Below are positions 1 through 12,180 of a stretch of DNA of 64,000 nt, in pieces. Position numbers and translations under genes: made by a program. The notes beneath the pieces were generated by a model. It was given only the letters and a program-made list of their open reading frames with translations, had not been told where the DNA came from and made no database searches. This DNA is from a virus (taxonomy: Duplodnaviria > Caudoviricetes), in IMG/VR virus record IMGVR_UViG_3300012979_000030, positions 32,001 through 96,000 of that record; one strand, written 5' to 3'. Positions within the stretch are counted from its first letter, which is position 1. Each line of letters begins with the position of its first letter.

Positions 1-283
1 TTTCATCTTTATAATCATCAATTGTTGCACAACCTGTTGCTATTTTAACACCAATATAATCATAACTTTTTAATTCTTTTTTCAATTCAAATATTCTTTT
101 TTCATTATTTGGTGTGTAACCACTTAATGGTGCATAACCTTTTATATACCAATTACCATTATAAGATTGTTCAACATCTAATAATTGCATACCTCTTTTT
201 TTATAAAGTTCTACATTATTACCTAATCCAACTTTACATTTTTTTGTTCTTGTATTTGTTATTATTGCCCACATCTTACTCAT
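1..283 (-). CDS. Partial small tail-associated protein (tail-fibre assembly-like); runs off the window start
   Basis: ATG at 283 overlaps the stop of 276..875 (ATGAGTAA). Open frame MSKMWAIITN...DVEQSYNGNWYIKGYAP...LKSYDYIGVKIATG to the window edge. Absent from the ORF track because it has no stop. Confidence 0.6.
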   Translation of the reverse strand, partial: MSKMWAIITNTRTKKCKVGLGNNVELYKKRGMQLLDVEQSYNGNWYIKGYAPLSGYTPNNEKRIFELKKELKSYDYIGVKIATGCATIDDYKDE

Positions 284-875
284 CTACTTCTCCTTTAAAT
301 GGATAGAATGATAATTGAACTGTTCCAGAACTTCTTTCATCAATATACACACTATCATTTTTTCCAATCATTATTGTTGTTGTATATGATTGATTTTCAC
401 CTGCCCACAATTCTAATATAATCACAGGTGATGACTCTGATGGTTTAAATCTAATAATACCACCATTACTTACACGAACATAAATAAAACCATTCATTGG
501 TGCAACAAATGTTTGTCCTGTTATTTCATCAATTGTTTCACCTGAATTATAATCAGGAACAATCAATGATGAAATTTTTGTTTTTGCAACACTTGTAATA
601 TTACTTAAATCTGTATCAGCTGGTGAAATTGCAGCCATATCACCATCTGGATTTATCCATATTTTTGATTTTTCTACACTTGGTTCTTCATTACTAATAA
701 TTACAGCATTTCTACCAACATCTGCATATGTTCTACTTGATACAGAAAAGTCTGTATCATTTAAGTCTTCTTTAACCACATAGATTTCATTTAAATTTTT
801 TGTTGTTAAAGAATCATATTGCTCTTTTGATAACACATTTATTTGTAAATTTGTTGTATTCTCAGTATTTGCCAT
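276..875 (-). CDS. Putative tail-fibre/virion protein
   Basis: N-terminal TTNLQINVLSKEQY...EIY module shared with 45789..46607; DTDLSNIT and TFVAPMNGFIYV motifs typical of phage fibre proteins. Confidence 0.6.
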   Translation of the reverse strand: MANTENTTNLQINVLSKEQYDSLTTKNLNEIYVVKEDLNDTDFSVSSRTYADVGRNAVIISNEEPSVEKSKIWINPDGDMAAISPADTDLSNITSVAKTKISSLIVPDYNSGETIDEITGQTFVAPMNGFIYVRVSNGGIIRFKPSESSPVIILELWAGENQSYTTTIMIGKNDSVYIDERSSGTVQLSFYPFKGEVDE

Positions 876-887
876 TTATAATCTCTC

Positions 888-1247
888 TTATTCTGTTTCT
901 TTTAATAATTCCAATAAATGACCAAGCATAATAGGTTCATTATATGATTCTTGTGGTATTTTATTAAATGATATGCTATTTTTGTCATTCAAAACATAAA
1001 TCATACCATTTTCACCAACAATAGTATTATCACCTACAACTCTCTTAATAATTGTTTTTACTTTCAAATCACAATTATCATATATATTGTTACCTATTTG
1101 TGGATATTGTGTTGTATAAACAATTTCATCATTATTAATTGTATTTTTCCATGATTTTGAACTATTTAATTTATTATACAAATCTGTATATATTACATTC
1201 AATCTATCATTGTTGATTTTTAATGTGGTACCTAATCTTATTGGCAT
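888..1247 (-). CDS. Hypothetical virion protein, paralogous to the C-terminal part of 45789..46607
   Basis: KLNSSKSW...VYTTQYPQIG...FNKIPQE...LLELLK aligns by eye with RLNKAWCW...IYTIPNPEIG...FDGIPED...LLKAIK; GGAG RBS and TATAAATA upstream. Confidence 0.6.
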   Translation of the reverse strand: MPIRLGTTLKINNDRLNVIYTDLYNKLNSSKSWKNTINNDEIVYTTQYPQIGNNIYDNCDLKVKTIIKRVVGDNTIVGENGMIYVLNDKNSISFNKIPQESYNEPIMLGHLLELLKETE

Positions 1248-1268
1248 TTATTTCTCCATATATAGAAT

Positions 1269-1276
1269 TATTTATA
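1269..1276 (-). promoter_or_regulatory. T4-type late promoter TATAAATA
   Basis: Exact TATAAATA about 22 nt upstream of the 888..1247 start; CATAAATA on + at 1300-1307 serves the divergent LRR operon. Confidence 0.5.
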
Positions 1277-1325
1277 CAATTATTTACCACTCAAAAGAAC
1301 ATAAATAAAAATATAATGTAGGAGA

Positions 1326-1577
1326 ATGTATATGGAGAAATCTATTGTTGTTCCGAATGGAACTACTGTCCGATGGAGAGTATATTGTGATGGATATGAA
1401 GAAGAATCCGGTATTGAAACAATTACCGGAAATAAAAGACTTTTAGTTGATTTAGAGTTAATTCCGGTTGAAGTAGATATTATTGATTATGAATTTACAA
1501 ATGAAGATAATATTGTAACATTAACAAAATATATAGGTTCCGAAACAAACGTGATTATGCCTGTTTTAATGGGGTGA
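1326..1577 (+). CDS. Small adaptor-like protein: half PEGA-like domain plus C-terminal LRR N-cap motif
   Basis: KSIVVPNGTTVRWRVYCDGY...LVDLE followed by DYEFTNEDNIVTLTKYIGSETNVIMP; GGAG RBS; start may be 1332. Confidence 0.65.
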   Translation: MYMEKSIVVPNGTTVRWRVYCDGYEEESGIETITGNKRLLVDLELIPVEVDIIDYEFTNEDNIVTLTKYIGSETNVIMPVLMG

Positions 1578-1580
1578 TAA

Positions 1581-2780
1581 ATGGCAATAACATTAGCAAA
1601 AGAAATACTTGCATCTCCAACTACTTTTAGAAACAATTCAAATATAGTTTCTGTTGATACAATGAATATTCCATGGGAAAATGACTCTATGGAATATAGT
1701 TTCAGCAATTGTTATAACCTTAAAGAGGTTCATAACATTTCAAATGATGTTATAAATTTAAGTTACACTTTTTATAATTGTTCAAATTTAACAAAATGCC
1801 CGGAAATTCCATCAAATGTATCAAATATGAGTTATACATTTTGTGGTTGTAACAATTTGAATGTTGCACCAACAATACCAAATAGTGTAACAAACATTGT
1901 TGGTTGTTTTGCAGATTGCCATTCATTAACATATACACCAACAATTCCAGAAAATATAACCAATTTGCAATCTACATTTTATAATTGTTCTAATTTAACA
2001 TCATTTCCAACAATACCAAATAGTGTATCAGATATGACACAAACCTATGCACTTTGTAAAAATATTAATGGTGTTATCACATATCCAACAAATATTGAGT
2101 GCTTAAGAGGAACATATGCATATTGTGATAATATAACATCTATTCCAAACATACCAGCATCAGTAACAGATTTATATGGAACATTTGAGGGATGTATTAA
2201 TGTTAGTGGAGATATTTACATACTTTCTGACAAAGTTTTAGATTGTAAAAATATATTTAATGGAACTTCTCAAATAAAAAATATATACATTCCATTTAAT
2301 TTTACAAATGATTATGCTGAAACTCTATATTGTTATAGTTCTGATTATGGTTATGATTCAATTTATATAAAATGTTTCAAAAATTCAGCACAAGTTTATT
2401 ACCAAAACGGTTCTATAAATGATAACATCAAGAATATTCAATTCAATGAATCAAAAACAGAAATCATTGTTGAATCATATTCAAATACATCAACATATTC
2501 AATAGATACATCAAATAATATATTAATAAATCACACAAATGGTTCACAATCATTGACATTAAAGTCTTTTATTGATGCAGGATATGATGGATATGGAACA
2601 TATGATGGTGTATACATTAAAGACATTTTAACATCTCAACTTCCACAAATACCTGAAGATGTCGTAGATATAAATTTAAGTGAATATGAAACAAGAACAT
2701 CAAATTATAAAACAGAGTTAATAAAATATATTGGAACCAATACAAGTGTTGTTGTTCCATCAACTGGGTTTGAGGGGTAA
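1581..2780 (+). CDS. BspA-like leucine-rich repeat protein 1 (about 8 repeats)
   Basis: 23-aa IPxxVxNMxxTFxxCxNL repeats; C-terminal ELIKYIGTNTSVVVP motif. Confidence 0.85.
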   Translation: MAITLAKEILASPTTFRNNSNIVSVDTMNIPWENDSMEYSFSNCYNLKEVHNISNDVINLSYTFYNCSNLTKCPEIPSNVSNMSYTFCGCNNLNVAPTIPNSVTNIVGCFADCHSLTYTPTIPENITNLQSTFYNCSNLTSFPTIPNSVSDMTQTYALCKNINGVITYPTNIECLRGTYAYCDNITSIPNIPASVTDLYGTFEGCINVSGDIYILSDKVLDCKNIFNGTSQIKNIYIPFNFTNDYAETLYCYSSDYGYDSIYIKCFKNSAQVYYQNGSINDNIKNIQFNESKTEIIVESYSNTSTYSIDTSNNILINHTNGSQSLTLKSFIDAGYDGYGTYDGVYIKDILTSQLPQIPEDVVDINLSEYETRTSNYKTELIKYIGTNTSVVVPSTGFEG

Positions 2781-2782
2781 CA

Positions 2783-3832
2783 ATGAAGACAAGACAAACA
2801 TTTTTAACATCAACAACATTTCAAAATAATCAATTAATTGAACATATTGATTGTAATAATGTAGTATGGAAAGGAAATTCAATATCATATGCATTTGCTG
2901 AATGTTCAAATTTAAAATCAATATCCAATATTAACAATAATGTATCTATTGTAAGTTATGCATATAAAAACTGTTCAAATTTATCAACACCACCAACATT
3001 ACCAAATAGTGTAACAAATATTGAGGGTGTTTATCAAGGATGTTCATCATTAACTGATATTCCTCATATTCCAGACAGTGTAACAAATATGTCATATACA
3101 TTTGCTGAATGCACAAACATCAAAAAATTATCAACATTACCAAACAGTGTATCAAATATGTCATATACATTTAGAAATTGCTTAAATTTATCATCTGTTT
3201 CATATACGTTTGATAATGTTTATAATATGGAAGGAACATTCCAAAACTGTATTAGATTGAATGGTGATATTCAAATAATATCTGAAAAAATTGGAAATGC
3301 AAATCTTTGTTTTGATAATTCTGGAACTTCCACAAAAAATGTTTATATTCCATTCAATTCAACCAAAAGACATTTATATTGTTATAGTAGAAATATAGAA
3401 GATTATGGATTTGAAAAATATTATATAGATGTTTATCCAATAAATCTATATGGGACTCAATTACCAGCATATGATGACAATGGAATCAATACTGGATATA
3501 CATTTTGGTTTACATCTAAAGATATTAATAGACCATTATTAGGTAAACCAAGTTCTGATGGAATTGGAACAACATATTCTGGTATTACTAGGGATATTAA
3601 GAATGATACATATGTCAATTTAGATGAACCAATTCCAACTATTACATATAATTCATTTATAAATGCTGGTTATAAAACTGATGGGTCATTGGATAATGTT
3701 TATTTGAAAGATTTTACTGAATTAGTTGCACAAGGTTACACCATAACAAATACTGAATCAACAGTATATCTAAATACATATATTGGAATAGAAACAAATA
3801 TTATAACACCAAAGTATTCTTGGGTTCAATAG
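2783..3832 (+). CDS. BspA-like LRR protein 2 (about 6 repeats)
   Basis: Same repeats; C-terminal VYLNTYIGIETNIITP motif. Confidence 0.85.
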   Translation: MKTRQTFLTSTTFQNNQLIEHIDCNNVVWKGNSISYAFAECSNLKSISNINNNVSIVSYAYKNCSNLSTPPTLPNSVTNIEGVYQGCSSLTDIPHIPDSVTNMSYTFAECTNIKKLSTLPNSVSNMSYTFRNCLNLSSVSYTFDNVYNMEGTFQNCIRLNGDIQIISEKIGNANLCFDNSGTSTKNVYIPFNSTKRHLYCYSRNIEDYGFEKYYIDVYPINLYGTQLPAYDDNGINTGYTFWFTSKDINRPLLGKPSSDGIGTTYSGITRDIKNDTYVNLDEPIPTITYNSFINAGYKTDGSLDNVYLKDFTELVAQGYTITNTESTVYLNTYIGIETNIITPKYSWVQ

Positions 3833-3840
3833 GAGAAATT

Positions 3841-5049
3841 ATGAGTGGATTATTACCAACAACACTAGTCAATACAACATATGCAAATAATAGAAACATT
3901 GTTTCTGTTGATTTAAATGAAGTTCCATTTTATAATAACTCAATGGCTGGTGCATTTAGTGGTTGTTCTAATCTAATATCTGTATCAAGTATCAATGAAA
4001 ATGTATCAAATATGTATCAAACATTTAATGGTTGTTCTAAATTAGTTAATGCACCAGATATTCCTAATGGTGTAACTGATATGAATGGGACATTTAGGTA
4101 TTGTTCTAAATTAGTTAATGCACCAGTTATCCCTAATAATGTTGTTAATATGAGTAGTACATTTAGTGGTTGTCAGAATCTAGTCAATGCACCTGTTATT
4201 CCTAATAGTGTAACTGATATGTATACTACATTTGGTTCATGTAGCAACCTAGTTAATGCACCAGATATTCCTAATAGTGTAACTAATATGCATCAAACAT
4301 TTTATTATTGTTATAATCTAGTTAATGCACCGGTTATCCCTAATAGTGTTGCTAAACTGTATCAAACATTTTATTACTGTAATAATCTAGTTAATGCACC
4401 TATTATCCCCAATAGTGTAACCAATATGTATAGAACATTTAGTGGTTGTCAGAATCTAGTCAATGCACCTGTTATTCCTAATAGTGTAACTGATATGAGT
4501 GGGACATTTAATGGTTGTTCTAATTTAGTCAATGCACCAAATATCCCTAATAGTGTTAAAGACATTAGTTATACATTTTCCAATTGTTCTAATCTAGTAA
4601 ATGCACCTGTAATTCCTAATAGTGTAACTAATATGAGATATACATTTAGTGGTTGTTCTAATCTAACAAGTAATATATACATACAATCAAAAAACATAAG
4701 AAATGCATATCATTGTTTTTATAATACATCACTAACAAAAAATGTATATATTCCATTTAAATATGAAAATGGTGAATATACAAAGACATATAATGCATTT
4801 GAAAATGCAGGATATACAGAAGAAACAATTGTTAATGGTGTTAAACTATTTGATAGTAATTATAACTACTATACTTTAACATTAAGAGTAATACCATCTG
4901 ATGCTGATGTTTTATCAGTAGATCCAAATATTAATGGATATATTGTTGATGTTACTGATTATGAATATCAATTAACAGATGGTGGTTCATCAGTAATATT
5001 AGGTAAATACATTGGTAATGATGTTGAGGAAATTATGCCAAATATTTAA
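3841..5049 (+). CDS. BspA-like LRR protein 3 (about 11 repeats)
   Basis: ATG 3841 after AGGAG RBS (track start 3820 is TTG); NAPVIPNSVT repeats; C-terminal VILGKYIGNDVEEIMP motif. Confidence 0.85.
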   Translation: MSGLLPTTLVNTTYANNRNIVSVDLNEVPFYNNSMAGAFSGCSNLISVSSINENVSNMYQTFNGCSKLVNAPDIPNGVTDMNGTFRYCSKLVNAPVIPNNVVNMSSTFSGCQNLVNAPVIPNSVTDMYTTFGSCSNLVNAPDIPNSVTNMHQTFYYCYNLVNAPVIPNSVAKLYQTFYYCNNLVNAPIIPNSVTNMYRTFSGCQNLVNAPVIPNSVTDMSGTFNGCSNLVNAPNIPNSVKDISYTFSNCSNLVNAPVIPNSVTNMRYTFSGCSNLTSNIYIQSKNIRNAYHCFYNTSLTKNVYIPFKYENGEYTKTYNAFENAGYTEETIVNGVKLFDSNYNYYTLTLRVIPSDADVLSVDPNINGYIVDVTDYEYQLTDGGSSVILGKYIGNDVEEIMPNI

Positions 5050-7380
5050 AGGGACAAAAAATGACAAAGGTTTATGTATCAAATGTTTATGCCAATAGTC
5101 AATTAACATTTATAAACAACAAAAATATCATTTCTATTGATTGTAATTATGTATCTTGGGTCAATAATACAATGTCTAATGCATTTAGAAATTGTTCTAA
5201 TCTAGTTTCTGTATCAAACATCAATGAAAATGTAACTGATATGAGGAATACATTTAGTAATTGTTGTAGTCTAGTTAATGCACCAGAAATTCCTAATAGT
5301 GTAATTGATATGTGGGAGACATTTAATAATTGTTATAATCTAATAAATGCACCAGTAATTCCTAATAGTGTAATTAGGATGGTTAATACATTTAATAATT
5401 GTTGTAGTCTAGTTAATGCACCTGTTATCCATAATGGTGTAACTGATATGAATGGGACATTTAGGTATTGTCGTAATCTAGTTAATGCGCCAGTAATTCC
5501 TAATAGTGTAACTAATATGAGTGATACATTTTATAATTGTTCTAATCTAATAAATGCACCAGAAATTCCTAATAGTGTAACTGATATGAGTGGAACATTT
5601 GGTTATTGTTCTAATCTAATAAATGCACCAGAAATTCCTAATAGTGTAATTAGTATGGAAGGGACATTTGCTGGTTGTAATCTAGTCAATTTTCCTGTTA
5701 TTCCTAATAGTGTAATTGATATGAGTACTACATTTGCTAGTTGTAATAATCTAGTCAATTCACCTATTATTCCTAATAGTGTAACTAGAATGTTTCGAAC
5801 ATTTTACGATTGTCCTAATCTAGTTGATGCACCTATTATACCTAATAGTGTTATTAATATGGAAAGAACATTTGATAATTGTACCAATCTAGTTGATGCA
5901 CCTATTATTCCAAATAGTGTTGTTAATATGAGTGGAACATTTTTTTATTGTCCTAATCTAGTCAATTTTCCTGTTATTCCTAATGGTGTAACTGATATGA
6001 GTTCTACATTTTATCATTGTGAAAAACTGCTTAATTCACCTGTTATCCCTAATAGTGTTACTAATATGTATGGGACATTTCAAAATTGTTTTAATCTAGT
6101 CAATGCACCAGTTATTCCTAATGGTGTAACTGATATGTGGAGGACATTTGATAATTGTCGTAATATAGTCAATGCACCTATTATACCTAATAGTGTAACT
6201 AAGATGGTTAATACATTTAATAATTGTTCTAATCTAACAGGTAATATATACATTCAATCAGTAAACATAAGTAATGCAATGGGTTGTTTTTATAATACAT
6301 CACTAACAAAAAATATATATATTCCATATACATGCACAATAGCATATTATAAAACTTTTAATAGTGGTGATACATATTACTTTGTAAAAAATTATAATAT
6401 TGGTGAACCAATTTATTATTATGATAATGGTCAATATACAGGACAAACAATAAAAAGTATTTTTGAGGCAGTTGGATTCTTCTATGACCAAAATTACAAA
6501 TACTATTATGATAATTCATCCGTTTCTGTTTCAGAAGAAGTTGAACCATATACAACACAAACATATAATTCATTTATTAATGCTGGTTATGATGAAAACG
6601 GAACAAAACATAATGTTTATTTAAAAGATTATAAAACATTATTTGATGTTAATTTAACAGATTACACACATACAATTGAAAATAATGTTGCAACAGTAAC
6701 AGCATATATAGGACAAGGTGGTGATATTACATTACCATCAACACTAAACAAATAGGAGAACTTTATGACAACAGTTAACAAAGTAATTTACTCTAATACA
6801 ACATTTACAAATTGTTCAAATATTGTATCAGTTGATTGTAATTATGTATCTTGGACTAATAACTCAATGTCTAATGCATTTAAAGATTGTTCCAATCTCA
6901 AATCTGTTAATAATATAAGTAAAAGTGTTACTAATATGTATTATACATTTAGGAATTGTCAAAATCTAGTTAATACTCCAGTAATTCCTAATAGTGTGGT
7001 TAATATGTATGGGACATTTCATTATTGTTATAATCTAGTCAATGCACCTATTATACCTAATAGTGTAACTGATATGAGTTATACATTTTATAGTTGTCAG
7101 AATCTAGTCAATGCACCAATAATTCCTAATAGTGTAACTAGTATGAATATGACATTTTATTGGTGCAAAAACATAGTCAATGCACCCATCATACCTAATA
7201 GTGTAACTTATATGAGTGGGACATTTGAAGATTGTTCTAATATAGTCAATGCACCCATCATACCTAATAGTGTAACTTATATGAGTGGGACATTTGAAGA
7301 TTGTTCTAATATAGTCAATGCACCTATTATACCTAATAGTGTAACTTATATGTTTGGGACATTTTCTAATTGTTATAATC
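4010..7380 (+). repeat. 69-nt (23-aa) coding tandem repeats in LRR genes 3-5
   Basis: Consensus cctaatagtgtaactNNNatgNNNNNNacatttNNNNNNtgtNNNaatctagtYaatgcaccN; near-exact adjacent copies start at 7201 and 7270. Confidence 0.9.
5061..6755 (+). CDS. BspA-like LRR protein 4 (about 16 repeats)
   Basis: Same repeats; C-terminal ATVTAYIGQGGDITLP motif. Confidence 0.85.
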   Translation: MTKVYVSNVYANSQLTFINNKNIISIDCNYVSWVNNTMSNAFRNCSNLVSVSNINENVTDMRNTFSNCCSLVNAPEIPNSVIDMWETFNNCYNLINAPVIPNSVIRMVNTFNNCCSLVNAPVIHNGVTDMNGTFRYCRNLVNAPVIPNSVTNMSDTFYNCSNLINAPEIPNSVTDMSGTFGYCSNLINAPEIPNSVISMEGTFAGCNLVNFPVIPNSVIDMSTTFASCNNLVNSPIIPNSVTRMFRTFYDCPNLVDAPIIPNSVINMERTFDNCTNLVDAPIIPNSVVNMSGTFFYCPNLVNFPVIPNGVTDMSSTFYHCEKLLNSPVIPNSVTNMYGTFQNCFNLVNAPVIPNGVTDMWRTFDNCRNIVNAPIIPNSVTKMVNTFNNCSNLTGNIYIQSVNISNAMGCFYNTSLTKNIYIPYTCTIAYYKTFNSGDTYYFVKNYNIGEPIYYYDNGQYTGQTIKSIFEAVGFFYDQNYKYYYDNSSVSVSEEVEPYTTQTYNSFINAGYDENGTKHNVYLKDYKTLFDVNLTDYTHTIENNVATVTAYIGQGGDITLPSTLNK

Positions 7381-7589
7381 TAAAGGGTAATGTATATATT
7401 CAATCAGAAAACATAACAAATGCATATAATTGTTTTTATTGTGCTTTTAATACACCATTGACAAAAAATGTATATATTCCATTTAAATATGAAAATGGTG
7501 AATATACAAAGACATATAATTCATTTATTAATGTAGGATATAATGAAAATGGAACAAAACATAATGTTTATTTAAAGAATATTAACTAA
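6765..7589 (+). CDS. BspA-like LRR protein 5 (about 8 repeats), last member, lacks the YIG..P tail
   Basis: Same repeats; ends at HNVYLKNIN directly after the C-cap. Confidence 0.85.
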   Translation: MTTVNKVIYSNTTFTNCSNIVSVDCNYVSWTNNSMSNAFKDCSNLKSVNNISKSVTNMYYTFRNCQNLVNTPVIPNSVVNMYGTFHYCYNLVNAPIIPNSVTDMSYTFYSCQNLVNAPIIPNSVTSMNMTFYWCKNIVNAPIIPNSVTYMSGTFEDCSNIVNAPIIPNSVTYMSGTFEDCSNIVNAPIIPNSVTYMFGTFSNCYNLKGNVYIQSENITNAYNCFYCAFNTPLTKNVYIPFKYENGEYTKTYNSFINVGYNENGTKHNVYLKNIN

Positions 7590-7636
7590 TTATAATCATA
7601 TACAATTATAGTTAAAATTAAATGTCATAAAAATAT

Positions 7637-7660
7637 TGAGGGGATAAATCAATCCCCTCA
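7637..7660. terminator. Hairpin between the convergent LRR operon and glycosyltransferase
   Basis: TGAGGGGAT-aaatca-ATCCCCTCA inverted repeat. Confidence 0.65.
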
Positions 7661-7664
7661 TTAA

Positions 7665-8663
7665 TTATTCACATTCTTTTTCCAATTCTTCAAGAAATTC
7701 TTTGATTCCAATTCTTGGAATAATTCCATGTAATTTATTACCCATATAACAATTTCTCATAACATCATTATAAATGTCAGAAAAAATATTATCTGGTATC
7801 TTATCTTTAATTTCTCTATAAACTTCTTTATAATATTTCAAACAAGAATTCCAATTCTGTTCAATAAATCTTTTATCTCTTTCTTCTGTTTCAATATAAT
7901 ATTCATATAAATTGCACAAAATCTGAACCTTTTGTTGCATAATATTACCATTAAATGGTGCAACTTTTTCAGCATATTTAACTGCATAAATCATATTTTC
8001 TGTATATCCAACAAATGATTGATCATATGAATATTGTGCATTGTTAATTCTTGTAATAGAATCTTCTTTAAAATGCCAATAATATGTAATATCTTGTATA
8101 AACTTGATTTGTTCATTTTGATTTGATACTAATTTACAAATCATATTAAAACCATTATCTTCATTGGCACGACTACCATTTAAGAACCTAATATTATACT
8201 TGTTTATAAAATCTCTTTTATACAATTTACCAAACATCCATACAGAATCATTTGGATGTCCAATATATGTTGTTTTTTGATCTTCCAAAAATTGACTGAA
8301 CACACAAGAAATTCTTGGATCAGATAAGATTTGTAATCTCAATGTTTTTAATGCAAATGCACCACTAAACGTGTCATCAGCATCAATAAACATCAACAAT
8401 GGGTTTGATGTATTATCAATACCATATTGTCTTGCATCCCCAGGACCACCATTTTTCTCCATAACAATTTCTCTAATTTTCATATATGGAGAAAACATAT
8501 CAACAAAATTTTTATAACCAATTCCATCAGCATCATTTACAATTGTTACTTCAACATCATCAACAATTTCTTGTGATGCAATACTCGATAATGTTCTTAA
8601 CAATGTATTTTGTGCTTTGTATGCAGGAATAATAATATCTATTTTTGGCAAACTATTTTCCAT
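7665..8663 (-). CDS. Glycosyltransferase family 2
   Basis: IDIIIPAYK, TIVNDAD, NGGPGDARQYG, FIDADD (DxD) and NED motifs; start 8663 has an AAGGA RBS. Confidence 0.9.
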   Translation of the reverse strand: MENSLPKIDIIIPAYKAQNTLLRTLSSIASQEIVDDVEVTIVNDADGIGYKNFVDMFSPYMKIREIVMEKNGGPGDARQYGIDNTSNPLLMFIDADDTFSGAFALKTLRLQILSDPRISCVFSQFLEDQKTTYIGHPNDSVWMFGKLYKRDFINKYNIRFLNGSRANEDNGFNMICKLVSNQNEQIKFIQDITYYWHFKEDSITRINNAQYSYDQSFVGYTENMIYAVKYAEKVAPFNGNIMQQKVQILCNLYEYYIETEERDKRFIEQNWNSCLKYYKEVYREIKDKIPDNIFSDIYNDVMRNCYMGNKLHGIIPRIGIKEFLEELEKECE

Positions 8664-8696
8664 ATTCTTTTCCTTATAATTATTACAAACTTCTTT

Positions 8697-8725
8697 ATTA
8701 TAATCATTATACATTACTTAGTCAA
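8697..8725 (-). promoter_or_regulatory. Sigma70-type promoter for the GT2 gene
   Basis: TTGACT-N17-TATAAT. Confidence 0.6.
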
Positions 8726-8893
8726 ATATTATTTTATTATAAACATTGGTATAACAATATTTAACAAGGAAGTTATTATACAAAGAATAGATTTAAAAAG
8801 TGGTATCATTAAGAATTAAATGATTTAAGCATATAATAAATATTTGTATAATCAATTTAGATTATAATTTGTTATAACAAATGGAGAAATTAT

Positions 8894-10780
8894 ATGACAG
8901 TTAGAATACAAATGAGAAGAGATACTGCTGCTAATTGGATTAAATATAATCCCATTTTAGCAAGTGGTGAAATTGGTCTTGAAACAGACACTAGTAAAAT
9001 AAAAGTAGGTAATGGCAATGATGTATATACAGATTTACCATACAAAATAGTAACAACAGAACAAATCAATTTAATTAGTCAACAACAATTGACAGGTGAA
9101 TCAATTACAGGTGGTGCTATTAAATATGGTATTTGGTATGCTGTGTCATCTGGTAATGTTGCTAGAAATAGAACTGTTACAGATTTCATTGAATTACCAA
9201 CAACACATAATCATGAATTGTTGTTTAAAATACCATTGCTTGATTTAAGTAGTCCAGAATACCCATTTATATCATTATATAAAGCACCTAGCAATGATAC
9301 TGCATCATTGGTTGGATATTTTAAAAGAGATGGTGGAACATTAGGTGGATCAGAATTAACAATTTCTGATGTAAAATGTGTTGCAGATACAACAATTAAT
9401 AGTTCACCATATTATTTGTATGAACCATCAACAAAAACACTTAGTTATAATCCATCAGAAGTAAAATATATTAGATGTTCATTACAAGATGCTCAATTAA
9501 CATATGAATATACTATTACAACACAAAATGTTGTTGAAAGTGTTGATATTACACATGGTGTTATCAAGTCAACACATATTGAACCAACATATCATTATTC
9601 AAATGTTGTTCGTGGTAATATGTATAATAATAAAACATATATACTTCCAGAAACAACTGGAAATGTTGCAGCAGCAGCAATGATGACATTGACATCATTA
9701 GAAGATGGTTCAACATTTTCTTGCCCTACTCGTGTATTAACAGAACCAATTGAATTAAAATATGATGGTCTTGTAATAGATGGTACAATCTATGACTACC
9801 CAGGTGGTGGTTATGATACATTGTTATTTTATGACGAAAATAATACACCAATTGAAGGGTATGAAGGTATCAATGGTGCTTTAAATATAATTACAACAAA
9901 TCAAATTGATATTGACTCAAGTGTGTCTAAATTAACAATTGTGACAAGTAATTCAACAACAGCACATATAAAAGTTCCACCTACCTACAAATATGTAAGA
10001 TCTTCAACAACATTTACTCCAAATGCTGGTATAGAAAATGGTGGTATAATTGTCAAGTATCATTATATTGGTGAACCAGAAAAAAATATTATTACATCAA
10101 CAACATTAGATGAATATATTGATGGTAAAATTAAATTGCCTACACAAACATCTGGAACATATCATTGGTCAGAAAACTATGGTAAATCGGTTGTTGCTCT
10201 TGGTGGTTCATTTGCTACAACTGGATATGCTCAACGTGCATATGATATTTGGAATGAAAAATTAGGATTATCATATAAATCAGTTGCAGTTGGTGGTGCT
10301 GGTTTCTGTGTTGGTTCAACATTTGTAACACAAGCAACCAATGCTCCTGTTGCAGACATTTATGTAATTTGGTGTTCAACAAATGACTTTGCAAATGGTA
10401 AACCAATTGGAACAAAAGATGATGATTATGCAACCACACCAACACAATGGTCTGCATTTAAAAAGGTTATAGAAACCTTATATACTAAAAACCCAAATGC
10501 AAAAATTTGTTTATTCACATCATCACCACATTTAACAAATGCAAAAGGTAATGAAGAAGGTATTGGTAGTGCAAGTTCATTGACACCATTAAAAGAATAT
10601 GTTGATGCACAAATTGCTGTATGTAAACATTATAGTATTCCTGTGTTGGATCAATATTATCAATCAAATCATAACTCATTTACAAAATCATTGGTATGTA
10701 AAAGTGGTGATTTCCATTTAACTCCATATGGTTATGAAGTTATGGCAGGAAGACAATTGCAAATGTTAGCAAGTTTATAA
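8894..10780 (+). CDS. Tailspike/fibre protein: Mtd_N-like N-terminus plus C-terminal SGNH/GDSL esterase
   Basis: RIQMRRDTAANW...NPILASGEIGLETDT..IKVGNG N-terminus; SGNH blocks ALGGSFA, AVGGAG, WCSTND, DFHLTPYGY. Confidence 0.8.
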   Translation: MTVRIQMRRDTAANWIKYNPILASGEIGLETDTSKIKVGNGNDVYTDLPYKIVTTEQINLISQQQLTGESITGGAIKYGIWYAVSSGNVARNRTVTDFIELPTTHNHELLFKIPLLDLSSPEYPFISLYKAPSNDTASLVGYFKRDGGTLGGSELTISDVKCVADTTINSSPYYLYEPSTKTLSYNPSEVKYIRCSLQDAQLTYEYTITTQNVVESVDITHGVIKSTHIEPTYHYSNVVRGNMYNNKTYILPETTGNVAAAAMMTLTSLEDGSTFSCPTRVLTEPIELKYDGLVIDGTIYDYPGGGYDTLLFYDENNTPIEGYEGINGALNIITTNQIDIDSSVSKLTIVTSNSTTAHIKVPPTYKYVRSSTTFTPNAGIENGGIIVKYHYIGEPEKNIITSTTLDEYIDGKIKLPTQTSGTYHWSENYGKSVVALGGSFATTGYAQRAYDIWNEKLGLSYKSVAVGGAGFCVGSTFVTQATNAPVADIYVIWCSTNDFANGKPIGTKDDDYATTPTQWSAFKKVIETLYTKNPNAKICLFTSSPHLTNAKGNEEGIGSASSLTPLKEYVDAQIAVCKHYSIPVLDQYYQSNHNSFTKSLVCKSGDFHLTPYGYEVMAGRQLQMLASL

Positions 10781-10796
10781 AATTTCTAATATTATT

Positions 10797-10823
10797 AAGA
10801 GGGAGTTTATACTCCCTCTTTTT
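10797..10823 (+). terminator. Intrinsic terminator
   Basis: AAGAGGGAGT-ttat-ACTCCCTCTT followed by a T-tract. Confidence 0.75.
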
Positions 10824-10875
10824 GATAGGGACATTTATGTCCTTAACAAAAAATAATTAAAAATGGGAAAGTTAT

Positions 10876-11520
10876 TTACTTTCCCATTTTTTCTAATACT
10901 TCTTTTTCTAAATCCTCAATTGTTCCATCATTTTTAAAAATATGTTTAGGTCTATCATAACCAACCCATCTCCATTCAGATTCATGGATTTTATCTAAAT
11001 CATCAACAACATATAAAGGATTAAAGTTAAGCGCTACATATAAATAATGACTTAATTTATTGAGTTCAAGATACCATTTTGGTAGTTCACCTCTTTCAAC
11101 ACGATAAATTGTTCCACCAAGTTCTTTAATCATGTCAATTTCATTTGGAAATCTAACATCTGTAATAACAACATTTTTATCAGAGTTCATAATTTTCTTT
11201 TTTAATGAATCAACCCAAATACTTTGTAAGAAATGATTTCTCAAAACTTCTGTCCCAAGTTGTTGTAAAATAATTCTTGGTGTAATCATTTTACCAAAAG
11301 CAACTGACCAATAATCATCTGCTTTTTCTCTCCACTCTCTTGATTCAATAGTATCACCTTGTAATAGTTTTCTATCCCAACCCATTAAAATAGCAGTAAT
11401 ATCTTTTAATGTGTCAGCAAAAGACATTTTTACAAACGATTCATCATTCTTACAAATAATATCACCAATGGTATCTTTTCCACTATTTTTAAGTCCACAA
11501 ATTCCAATAACTTTTGTCAT
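10876..11520 (-). CDS. Deoxynucleoside monophosphate kinase (T4 gp1-like)
   Basis: GICGLKNSGKDT P-loop, SFADTLKD, TPRIILQQLGTEVLR, VITDVRFPNE, HESE. Confidence 0.9.
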   Translation of the reverse strand: MTKVIGICGLKNSGKDTIGDIICKNDESFVKMSFADTLKDITAILMGWDRKLLQGDTIESREWREKADDYWSVAFGKMITPRIILQQLGTEVLRNHFLQSIWVDSLKKKIMNSDKNVVITDVRFPNEIDMIKELGGTIYRVERGELPKWYLELNKLSHYLYVALNFNPLYVVDDLDKIHESEWRWVGYDRPKHIFKNDGTIEDLEKEVLEKMGK

Positions 11521-11736
11521 TTATTCCTCTGTTGCATAAATTAATTTATACCAATTTTTACCTTTATAAGTTAAATTTGATACTTTTGTTGTTGTTTTAG
11601 AAATTCTTTCTGTAATTTCAACAACTAATTTACCATTACCAAGTTCAGAACATGAATATTTTGTATTATCAGTGGAAATGAGTTCTTGAAAATCTGCTTC
11701 CTCATTTCGTTTAATATAATATGCAATCTTAATCAT
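11521..11736 (-). CDS. Hypothetical protein
   Basis: Abuts both neighbours in a minus-strand operon. Confidence 0.6.
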   Translation of the reverse strand: MIKIAYYIKRNEEADFQELISTDNTKYSCSELGNGKLVVEITERISKTTTKVSNLTYKGKNWYKLIYATEE

Positions 11737-12180
11737 TTATAACATCTCCTTAATTTTTTTAGAAACATAACCAAAATCCATCTGACCTGAATATTTGGAT
11801 TTTAATACACCCATTAATTTACCCATATCTTTCATAGATGTAATGGAATTGGTTTCAATTTCTTGTTTAAGTATATCATCAATTTCATCAGTTGTCAATT
11901 GTTTTGGTAAGAATTGTGATAAAATACTGACTTCTTTTTCATTCTTTTCAACCAAATCTTCTCTGCCACCTGTTTTAAACATTTCAATAGCATCTTTTGT
12001 TTGTTTGATAAGTTTTTGAACTAATGACAAAATAACATCATCATTCATTTCTTTGTTAGATGTTCTTAATTCAATTTCTTTGTTTTTGATTTCTGCTCTT
12101 AAAGTGCTAATAACTCTTTTAGCATCTTCATCTTTATTTAACATTGCTTGTTTAAAAGCATTTGTAATTTTTGTTTGCAT
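11737..12180 (-). CDS. GatB/YqeY domain protein
   Basis: KQAMLNKD...LRAEIKNKEI...GGREDLVEK...FLPKQL...KDMGKLMG signature. Confidence 0.9.
   Translation of the reverse strand: MQTKITNAFKQAMLNKDEDAKRVISTLRAEIKNKEIELRTSNKEMNDDVILSLVQKLIKQTKDAIEMFKTGGREDLVEKNEKEVSILSQFLPKQLTTDEIDDILKQEIETNSITSMKDMGKLMGVLKSKYSGQMDFGYVSKKIKEML

Follow-up and report, generated by a model that had tools for sequence, protein, structure and literature searches.

How does a phage come to carry five adjacent genes whose repeats hold one scaffold almost constant while the same few positions of each turn vary? Binding proteins determine which hosts a phage can infect, and the known routes by which these vary are tail-fibre module swapping and diversity-generating retroelements (DGRs). 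The locus lies in a stretch of 64,000 nucleotides (the window) within a 106-kb virus record, and it poses two related problems: (i) whether its repeats are rewritten by a programmed generator or change through ordinary processes; and (ii) whether its products are binders carried on the virion. We consider it fairly probable, for the explanation taken as a whole, that positions 1326-7589 are one operon of a jumbo phage from the ruminant gut and lie in its tail-fibre region, that the operon encodes five paralogous LRR proteins, most probably virion-borne binding modules, and that ordinary processes shape their arrays over evolutionary time.

An operon of five LRR genes

Five co-oriented LRR genes, all on the + strand, span 1581-7589, and tail-fibre-like genes flank the operon on both sides. 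The features are as follows:

1326..1577, + strand: 83-aa leader gene, first in the operon, without LRRs; C-terminal 'DYEF...TLTKYIG....V.P' hairpin module
1581..2780, + strand: g1, LRR_5 protein; about nine more diverged repeats, C-cap with a long insert, C-terminal hairpin
2783..3832, + strand: g2, LRR_5/DUF285 protein; about seven diverged repeats, insert-bearing C-cap, C-terminal hairpin
3841..5049, + strand: g3, 402-aa LRR_5 protein; nine canonical repeats at 4048-4668, flanking cap repeats, C-terminal hairpin
5061..6755, + strand: g4, 564-aa LRR_5 protein; 14 canonical repeats at 5277-6239, then C-cap and hairpin
6765..7589, + strand: g5, 274-aa LRR_5 protein; canonical repeats at 6972-7385, without the C-terminal hairpin
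7637..7660, no strand assigned: bidirectional terminator-like hairpin at the operon end, facing the convergent GT2 gene
7665..8714, - strand: family-2 glycosyltransferase (GT2), by profile match
8894..10780, + strand: tail-fibre protein with an Mtd_N domain and a GDSL esterase

An orthologue of the leader gene is also found upstream of the LRR genes in the relative L082, and GT2 orthologues adjoin or sit near LRR genes in 10 of 13 longer orthologue loci. Within the 106-kb record, which is 41% complete, LRR_5 matches are confined to the five-gene cluster. The g3 gene starts at an ATG preceded by a Shine-Dalgarno site; the more upstream TTG (3820) is an artefact of ORF listing. In g4 the C-cap has a 65-aa insert, and the repeat unit at 5622, with 22 aa, is the sole departure from the 23-residue spacing. 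The reading frame of g5 is that of g4, with a TAG and three codons between them, and g5 has its own Shine-Dalgarno site and ATG. Fusion of the two genes through stop-codon recoding was considered and rejected, because each of the three stop codons is used and a separate ribosome-binding site serves each gene.

The products of g1-g5 are repeat proteins of the BspA/TpLRR class. They match Pfam LRR_5 (PF13306) with 58.6, 45.4, 75.4, 87.2 and 53.4 bits, respectively, the cut-off being 27.7. Both TRF and the spacing of the T-F-x-x-C anchor give a period of 69 nt, or 23 aa, and the scaffold of the 23-residue turn is N-A-P-x-I-P-N-S-V-x-x-M-x-x-T-F-x-x-C-x-N-L-V. A preliminary reading of the sequence alone had counted about 49 such repeats in the five genes, which agrees with our recount of 49-54, a range that depends on whether degenerate cap repeats are counted. 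The fold of g3 is modelled as an LRR_5-type beta-rich solenoid with two beta-ladders per turn, at positions 1 and 11 (AF2, pLDDT 90.9). The best Foldseek matches of the model are 4fs7 (E 1.8e-8), 4gt6 and TpLRR 6mlx, the last with an rmsd of 2.7 Å over 172 columns and 28% identity. A separate C-cap, a small beta domain and a KYIG hairpin belong to every repeat module, g5 alone being without the hairpin, and no signal peptide is visible in the N-termini of the five LRR proteins.

Variable slots, fixed scaffold and recombination footprints

Thirty canonical repeats were picked in g3-g5, and the statistics were calculated on 29 of them, the degenerate g5 unit at 6903 being left out. Positions 13, 14, 17, 18 and 20 are hypervariable, with entropies of 2.5-3.2 bits; positions 4, 10 and 11 are moderately variable (1.5-2.2 bits); and entropy is about zero at P3, I5, N7, V9, T15, F16 and C19. 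The commonest residues in the slots are S, G, Y and N. The same slots are variable across 1824 repeats from 240 homologues, with H, R, Y, Q, W, G and S over-represented in them and aliphatics and proline under-represented. By the LxxLxLxxN register, the concave-strand positions V23, N1, P3, P6 and N7 are invariant and only x4 varies, and the five hypervariable slots are placed in the variable segment of the repeat, off the canonical concave strand.

The sequence-only reading had proposed entropy and dN/dS as checks on its claim that the same slots vary, and both bear it out, with a non-synonymous excess at those slots. The pN/pS ratio is 1.57 in the slots and 0.21 in the scaffold of the g3-g5 repeats, although a dN/dS above 1 at the slots is confounded by slot saturation and scaffold conversion. 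Whatever the scaffold similarity of the repeat pair, slot pN stays at about 0.60, and synonymous divergence, which ranges from 0.11 to 0.38 across the repeat-pair classes, is below this value in each class.

The scaffold had also been described as nearly invariant even at the DNA level. This is true of codon choice, ten of the fourteen compared scaffold codons being almost fixed on a single codon, but overstates the similarity of the repeats, whose mean identity is 76% with a scaffold pS of 0.30. Scaffold codon diversity is 44% of that predicted from genome codon usage, and the codons fixed in the scaffold are among the genome's rare ones, namely CTA (5% genome-wide), AGT (22%) and CCT (18%). 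In the relative L017, the scaffold codons are uniform in 8 of 8 repeats. Because related phages have scaffolds fixed on different codons, the pattern, uniform within a genome but differing between genomes, indicates concerted evolution.

Exact DNA blocks and a mosaic gene end give a more direct view of exchange between repeats:

4065..4104 (g3), + strand: 40-nt exact block, identical to 5432-5471 (g4) and spanning six variable slots
4159..4221, + strand: 63-nt exact patch, identical to 4435-4497, four repeats away (276 nt = 4x69)
4735..4794, + strand: 60-nt exact block, identical to 7461-7520 in the g5 C-cap
7173..7324, + strand: tandem exact duplication of one repeat (83 nt; 7173-7255 = 7242-7324)
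7386..7586, + strand: mosaic C-terminus of g5, g3-like to about 7520 and g4-like from about 7521

All four of the identical blocks listed by the earlier reading are present in the sequence. The 39-mer that it quoted sits at 4066 and 5433, within the maximal 40-nt block; the adjacent duplication that it placed at 7201/7270 exists, but the exact 83-nt block starts at 7173/7242. The flanks of the 63-nt patch are only 52-74% identical, as fits a putative conversion tract. In-phase exact runs of at least 35 nt number seven, against 0.65 expected, and runs of at least 40 nt number five, against 0.11 expected; this excess has P<0.001 under a null of 1000 codon-column shuffles, in which the longest run was 57 nt. 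The N-caps, C-caps and tails have mutually incongruent paralogue relationships. Recombination or gene conversion acting on a conserved scaffold, as originally suggested, is supported by the block excess, the 63-nt patch, the g5 mosaic and the within-genome uniformity of codons, and is the probable source of these footprints.

Change of the arrays among relatives

Repeat number is polymorphic between strains. For example, L057 and L061 differ over 20.9 kb solely by one 69-nt repeat unit, and one short-read contig (X5) has a g3 that is still in frame, shorter by two repeats and including a novel one. A higher-order block duplication is seen in L017. The strain comparison suggested by the earlier reading thus upholds polymorphism of repeat number. 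Among five near-identical locus pairs from different samples, three show 100% identity through the LRR genes. Because their arrays are identical, diversification appears to be evolutionary rather than ongoing within a population. In a related strain g1-g2 are 97% identical, and the flanks are similar. Ruminant samples (runs X1, X3, X5 and X8) contain strains with 97-99% identity. The strain data from sequencing runs are Logan contigs only, in which the g3-g5 arrays are fragmented, and at most 16% of the stretch's words occur in any one run; Logan joints with short sides (e.g., 4221->4584, side 27) were left out of the evidence. No close relative by g5 or by the tail-fibre protein was found among viral contigs, and g2 gave no match in metagenome contigs.

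The syntenic relative L082 has two LRR genes as against five here, and its identity to the present locus is 44-49% in the LRR genes and 37-60% in the non-LRR neighbours. The LRR genes are therefore no more diverged than their neighbours, and the locus is not demonstrably faster-evolving than its surroundings; as a test of evolutionary speed, L082 was set aside as too distant. Two other signals were examined and dismissed. In L025/L026, 44 substitutions form a patch at an LRR gene's 5′ end; this patch was not attributed to slot hypermutation, because it abuts a synteny break and is read as a recombination boundary. An apparent adenine bias among substitutions in L044/L045 is taken as assembly noise, given many 1-nt indels and no reverse transcriptase; the gene in question is a distant, canonical BspA gene.

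Searches for the components of a programmed system were negative. No reverse transcriptase (RVT_1) was matched in the 106-kb record, which is a fragment, or in any of five relatives, one of which is a complete 367-kb genome with a 48-repeat LRR gene, in agreement with the original proposal that diversification proceeds without one. There was likewise no APOBEC_N deaminase match in the record (41% complete) and no profile match to a resolvase. Positions 1-12000 contain only short inverted repeats whose complementarity, 72-86%, is at chance level, and no array copies occur in the record outside the five-gene cluster. The five ORFs are complete, tightly packed and on one strand, without promoterless fragments; every one of them starts at an ATG behind a Shine-Dalgarno site of its own, which leaves no silent cassettes among them. 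The repeats differ at all bases, and by whole codons in the slots, with no adenine-specific pattern.

These data bear on two alternatives. It is very improbable, in our judgement, that a programmed real-time generator (VLR-like cassettes, a DGR, or a shufflon or other invertible system) rewrites the arrays within the phage population. Such a generator would account for the exact blocks common to different genes, the mosaic g5 C-terminus and the polymorphic repeat number, and its helper enzyme could be encoded elsewhere in a genome of which the record covers 41%; however, it is opposed by the negative searches for RVT_1, an APOBEC-like deaminase, a resolvase and convincing inverted repeats, by the completeness of all five genes, by the three locus pairs whose LRR genes are 100% identical between samples, and by the identity of g1-g2 in the related strain, which is like that of the flanks. 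The arrays are thus most probably products of evolutionary-scale recombination and selection, not of a programmed VLR-, DGR- or shufflon-like generator. A neutral origin, in which recently amplified repeats under relaxed surface constraint would have accumulated slot diversity without any repertoire function, also seems improbable. In its favour, the slots correspond to no more than the 'x' positions of the general BspA consensus, some relatives (e.g., L017) have amplified their repeats recently, and the dN/dS estimates are confounded; yet neutrality caps pN at dS, and the slot pN of 0.60 exceeds the synonymous divergence in all repeat-pair classes. In addition, the slots of the 240 homologues resemble binding sites, being rich in Y, W, R and H and poor in aliphatics and proline, and the family is large and kept intact in many phages. 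We infer that the slot diversity is adaptive.

In the explanation that we favour, each turn combines a fixed scaffold with eight variable and putatively exposed side chains, five strongly variable and three moderately so, in its variable-segment half. Unequal crossing-over or slippage would add and remove 69-nt units or blocks of units, whereas short-tract gene conversion and recombination between repeats and paralogues would keep the scaffold uniform within a genome and create mosaic genes. Positive selection would act on the putatively exposed slots.

Role of the proteins and comparison with known systems

Judged by their context, the products most probably serve on the virion as binding modules, either adhesins or accessory receptor-binding proteins, and would offer the phage several different binding surfaces. 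This assignment draws on the tail-fibre neighbourhood, the absence of signal peptides and homologues in which LRR_5 is fused to the Pfam head-fibre domain PF25641; other homologues are fused to PEGA domains and further surface-type domains. A distant LRR_5 homologue in Synechococcus phage S-CBWM1 lies among tail-fibre genes and is annotated as a putative tail protein, and Goslar virion proteins with LRR/beta-helix domains have been proposed as host-recognition elements (bioRxiv 10.64898/2026.04.21.720040). A role away from the virion, as intracellular protein binders (in host takeover or anti-defence) or as proteins released at lysis, is unlikely. LRRs are general protein-binding modules, the five proteins have neither a signal peptide nor a recognisable virion-anchoring domain, and their PHROGs families are all of unknown function, but this role sits poorly with an operon embedded among tail-fibre-type genes, with the fusions to head-fibre, PEGA and other surface-type domains, and with the annotation and gene context of the S-CBWM1 homologue.

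The KYIG hairpin ends the leader and the g1-g4 products but not g5, and in fused homologues it precedes the next LRR module covalently. Each protein could therefore cap the next, and it is conceivable, if rather doubtful, that the operon builds an ordered non-covalent chain, that is, a fibre presenting five hypervariable LRR surfaces in fixed order. If so, the splitting or fusing of modules, as in L013, L014 and L082, would rewire the fibre.

The sequence-only reading had likened the arrays to lamprey VLRs and repebodies. The likeness is real in that both have an LRR solenoid whose framework stays fixed while a few positions, rich in Y, W, R, S, G and N, are hypervariable, and in that diversity arises partly from copying between repeat units. 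However, VLR genes are put together somatically, with an AID-like deaminase, out of silent cassettes, whereas the phage genes are complete and change slowly in the germ line; VLRs vary the concave beta-strand, whereas the phage repeats, by sequence register, vary the variable segment; and there was no Pfam match to LRRNT or LRRCT caps in the five LRR proteins. The analogy is thus loose. Phage DGRs of the Bordetella phage Mtd type similarly vary a binding surface on a stable scaffold, but the present locus has no reverse transcriptase, template/variable repeat pair or adenine-specific pattern, and its scaffold is an LRR rather than a C-type lectin fold. A further point of likeness is the Mtd_N domain of the neighbouring tail-fibre gene.

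The closest structural relatives are the BspA/TpLRR proteins (4fs7, 4gt6, 4fdw, 4h09 and T. pallidum TpLRR 6mlx), which have the same 23-residue period, I-P-x-S-V...A/T-F-x-x-C pattern and beta-rich solenoid. The phage proteins differ in that one residue is moved from the second to the first repeat half (LVNAPxIP as against LtsItIP), that the surface scaffold N1, P3, P6, N7, S8, T15 and N21 is unusually invariant, and that they are phage-encoded, without signal peptides, as an operon of modules, each with its own C-cap, small beta domain and KYIG hairpin. We found no description of phage BspA-type LRR arrays in the literature; the LRR_5 signal in the SPLASH preprint was rejected as a precedent, since it concerns a MITE near LRR_5 genes rather than the family seen here. 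The locus belongs to a large and essentially unannotated family (more than 8000 metagenomic proteins matched), and it suggests that animal-gut jumbo phages use BspA-type LRR solenoids as a variable scaffold renewed by ordinary inter-repeat recombination. If the proteins are virion-borne binders, they would add a third class of scaffold to those known for phage adhesion repertoires, would supply stable, cysteine-laddered LRR binders from nature, and would usefully mark the host-recognition regions of uncultured jumbo phages.

Finally, LRR gene clusters that combine concerted evolution with diversifying selection are familiar from plant resistance genes and Listeria internalins. The same combination is described for the Trichomonas BspA-like family (PMC2843621) and the Protochlamydia lgr genes (PMC2216083). 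The phage operon resembles all of these in its tandem paralogues, in the repeat units gained and lost, in gene conversion and in the probable selection at putatively exposed x positions; unlike them, it is carried by a jumbo phage, with the genes in its host-recognition region. The evolutionary mechanism of the phage arrays is the textbook one for LRR gene clusters.

Organization of the LRR operon

The array is distributed over five neighbouring genes (g1 to g5), whose products all pass the Pfam cut-off for LRR_5 (BspA-type) repeats, with a period of 69 nt or 23 aa. None of the genes lacks a Shine-Dalgarno sequence or an ATG of its own, and TAA, TAG and TGA all serve as stop codons. The features are:

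1326-1577, 83-aa gene, upstream of g1
1581-2780, + strand, g1, LRR_5 protein gene
2783-3832, + strand, g2, LRR_5 protein gene, also a DUF285 match
3841-5049, + strand, g3, LRR_5 protein gene, also a DUF285 match
5061-6755, + strand, g4, LRR_5 protein gene
6765-7589, + strand, g5, LRR_5 protein gene
7637-7660, terminator-like hairpin, downstream of g5

At the C-cap, g1, g2 and g4 carry long, unrelated inserts (2275-2560, 3330-3700 and 6320-6550) between KN[VI]YIP[FY] and TYNSFINAGY; at the same site g3 and g5 have only KYENGEYTK. Within the operon (1326-7589), a protein hairpin of the form DYEY...TLTKYIG....V.P ends the 83-aa gene and g1 to g4 and is missing from g5. In fused homologues of related phages (L013, 9941-13426; L014, 4715-7375) it is covalently joined to the front of the next LRR module, and it is directly ahead of that module in 62 of 120 long forms. 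The borders between genes thus separate a module from what looks like its N-terminal cap. When read-through of g4-TAG-g5 was modelled, the hairpin had a pLDDT of 81-89, and its free counterpart at the g3 terminus had 72-77; this difference is consistent with the hairpin docking onto the cap that follows.

The parent record of the window, of which it forms bases 32001-96000, is a linear IMG/VR sequence of 106.5 kb with a CheckV completeness of 41%. The window has a G+C content of ~27%, and its genes for GroEL, anaerobic ribonucleotide reductase and a methyltransferase mark the sequence as part of a jumbo phage genome. Metagenome contigs matching the flanks at 97-99% identity come from faeces, bovine gut and sheep gut in four studies.

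Variable slots, fixed scaffold and recombination

The sequence-only reading had proposed a fixed scaffold in which the same slots vary, and per-position entropy and pN/pS bear this out. Among the 29 canonical repeats of g3-g5 on which the slot statistics are based, entropy is 2.5-3.2 bits at repeat positions 13, 14, 17, 18 and 20, 1.5-2.2 bits at positions 4, 10 and 11, and ~0 at scaffold positions, while pN/pS is 1.57 for slots versus 0.21 for the scaffold. Slot pN is ~0.60 at every level of scaffold identity between repeat pairs, with synonymous divergence of 0.11-0.38. In 1824 repeats from 240 homologues, entropy at the same slots is 3.2-3.8 bits, with H, R, Y, Q, W, G and S enriched and aliphatic residues and proline depleted; the slot pattern therefore belongs to the family and not to this phage alone.

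The further claim that the scaffold is nearly invariant at the DNA level holds in part. Mean DNA identity among repeats is only 76%, but fixed scaffold residues show just 44% of the codon diversity predicted from the phage's own codon usage. Many of the fixed codons are rare, such as CTA for Leu22 (5% genome-wide), AGT for Ser8 (22%) and CCT for Pro6 (18%), and the fixed codons differ among related phages: Leu22 is TTA in L013 and L014, and the scaffold codons of another related locus, L017, are AAC/GCT/GTG/ACT/CTT in 8 of 8 matched repeats. Codons that are uniform inside a genome and different between genomes are the signature of concerted evolution, which may have proceeded via recent amplification, ongoing conversion, or both. 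The L017 array itself (9419-11254; a 611-aa protein with 20 repeats nearly identical in DNA) looks like a very recent amplification, consisting of a duplicated block of eight units in which differences are limited to slots 13, 14 and 17 and an IPNS/IGVN alternation.

Identical DNA blocks had been cited as signs of shuffling between genes, and all are present:

4065 and 5432, exact block of 40 nt
4159 and 4435, exact block of 63 nt
4735 and 7461, exact block of 60 nt
7173 and 7242, exact adjacent duplicate of 83 nt

Seven in-phase exact runs reached 35 nt or more, against 0.65 expected from codon-column shuffles, and the 83-nt and 63-nt runs surpass the longest run among 1000 such shuffles (57 nt). 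The 63-nt patch crosses a repeat border and covers six slots, and its flanks have 52-74% identity with synonymous differences among them; this patch is better explained by a short conversion tract than by a duplication that then decayed evenly. Paralogue groupings also disagree, in that g4 and g5 group together in the N-cap (73%) and in the last 25 codons of the beta domain (88%), and g3 and g5 in the C-cap (89%). Site by site, the C-terminus of g5 is g3-like to ~7520 and g4-like from ~7521. The excess of exact runs, the 63-nt tract and this mosaic uphold the proposal of recombination or gene conversion on a conserved scaffold.

Strain differences and the search for a diversity generator

Strain comparison, which the same reading had named as a check, yielded both repeat-number change and stasis. 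The sole difference over 20.9 kb between the IMG/VR loci L057 and L061, from different samples, is one 69-nt LRR unit (at ~8878 of L057, in a gene of ~2100 aa and 47-48 repeats). Contigs of sequencing run X5 match the flanks and g1-g2 with 97-98% identity, and one short-read contig has an in-frame g3 variant that is two repeats shorter and includes a repeat whose slot residues are new but whose scaffold is unchanged; its 24 inserted letters do not occur in the window. On the other side, three near-identical IMG/VR pairs (L046/L047, L050/L051 and L058/L066) have 100% identity over ~21 kb, LRR genes included, which is evidence against real-time rewriting of the arrays. In the syntenic relative L082, where the 83-aa gene also has an orthologue, two LRR genes (648 and 1243 aa) come after it, versus five in the window, with LRR identity (44-49%) no lower than that of non-LRR neighbours (37-60%). 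Overall, these arrays hold steady on short timescales, with unit gain or loss as the earliest change, and the number of modules and the gene borders shift over longer times.

Two other locus pairs differ in patches. The 44 substitutions that separate L025 from L026 over 11.4 kb are all confined to the opening 230 nt of an LRR gene (L025, 9424-9652), the rest being identical; because the patch adjoins the end of contig likeness, it marks a boundary of recombination where the gene begins. Between L044 (4513-4924) and L045, 9 of 10 substitutions start from A in L044; indels of 1 nt are numerous, and L045 is frameshifted. Neither record encodes a reverse transcriptase, and the differences probably stem from faulty assembly of a canonical BspA gene.

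The suggestion that diversification proceeds without a reverse transcriptase agrees with the absence of one from the 41%-complete record and from five relatives, including the complete 367-kb phage genome that is the parent of L057. Nor did the record contain an APOBEC-like deaminase, a resolvase or LRR copies beyond the cluster, and no meaningful inverted repeats were found in positions 1-12000 of the window. These results argue against a dedicated generator of array diversity.

Possible function and relationship to known LRR systems

The operon is flanked on both sides by tail-fibre-type genes, namely opposite-strand genes upstream for a Gly_rich_2 protein of 1462 aa and a BppL_N protein, and a gene downstream for a tail fibre with Mtd_N/GDSL. 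No signal peptide is visible at the N-termini of the g1-g5 proteins. Homologues number 3176 of near length and 5670 longer, many on 200-340-kb contigs, and in several (among them P0225, P0221, P0168 and P0156) LRR_5 arrays are fused to Pfam PF25641, "Head fiber dimeric protein-like" (48-80 bits). In Synechococcus phage S-CBWM1, a distant LRR_5 gene amid tail-fibre genes bears the annotation of putative tail protein, and for phage Goslar, LRR/beta-helix domains of head-to-tail fibre proteins have been proposed as host-recognition elements (bioRxiv 10.64898/2026.04.21.720040). The neighbours, the missing signal peptide, the fusions, the annotation and the Goslar proposal lead us to favour, with moderate confidence, virion-borne binding modules as the products of g1-g5.

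Some PF25641-fused homologues also carry a PEGA fusion, and a 132-aa gene with a sub-threshold PF25641 match is located ~18 kb upstream in the same phage (L080, 14006-14404). The convergent neighbour of the operon is a family-2 glycosyltransferase gene (7665-8714, - strand), far better conserved towards L082 (88% identity) than its neighbours (37-60%); LRR genes adjoin its orthologues or lie close by in 10 of 13 longer loci (L082-L094). The enzyme might modify LRR or fibre proteins.

An AlphaFold2 model of g3 (44 homologues; pLDDT 90.9) has beta-bridge ladders at repeat positions 1 and 11, and Foldseek ranks the LRR_5 structures 4fs7 and 4gt6, along with TpLRR 6mlx, as its best matches. The g1-g5 proteins are members of the BspA/TpLRR class. 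Set in register with the LRR consensus LxxLxLxxN (PMC5976695), the conserved segment is L22-x-x-A2-(P3)-x4-I5-P6, with exposed positions invariant except x4. By the same sequence register, every hypervariable slot falls within the variable segment, between the second ladder and the next turn. VLRs and repebodies vary the concave strand, whereas g3-g5 vary the variable segment; the VLR/repebody analogy of the sequence-only reading applies in a loose sense only, that of a fixed scaffold with variable slots. The mode of evolution of g1-g5 is like that of known LRR gene clusters, such as the BspA-like genes of Trichomonas (PMC2843621) and the lgr genes of Protochlamydia (PMC2216083), and what has been little described is the setting, multi-gene, multi-module LRR arrays in the host-recognition region of gut jumbo phages.
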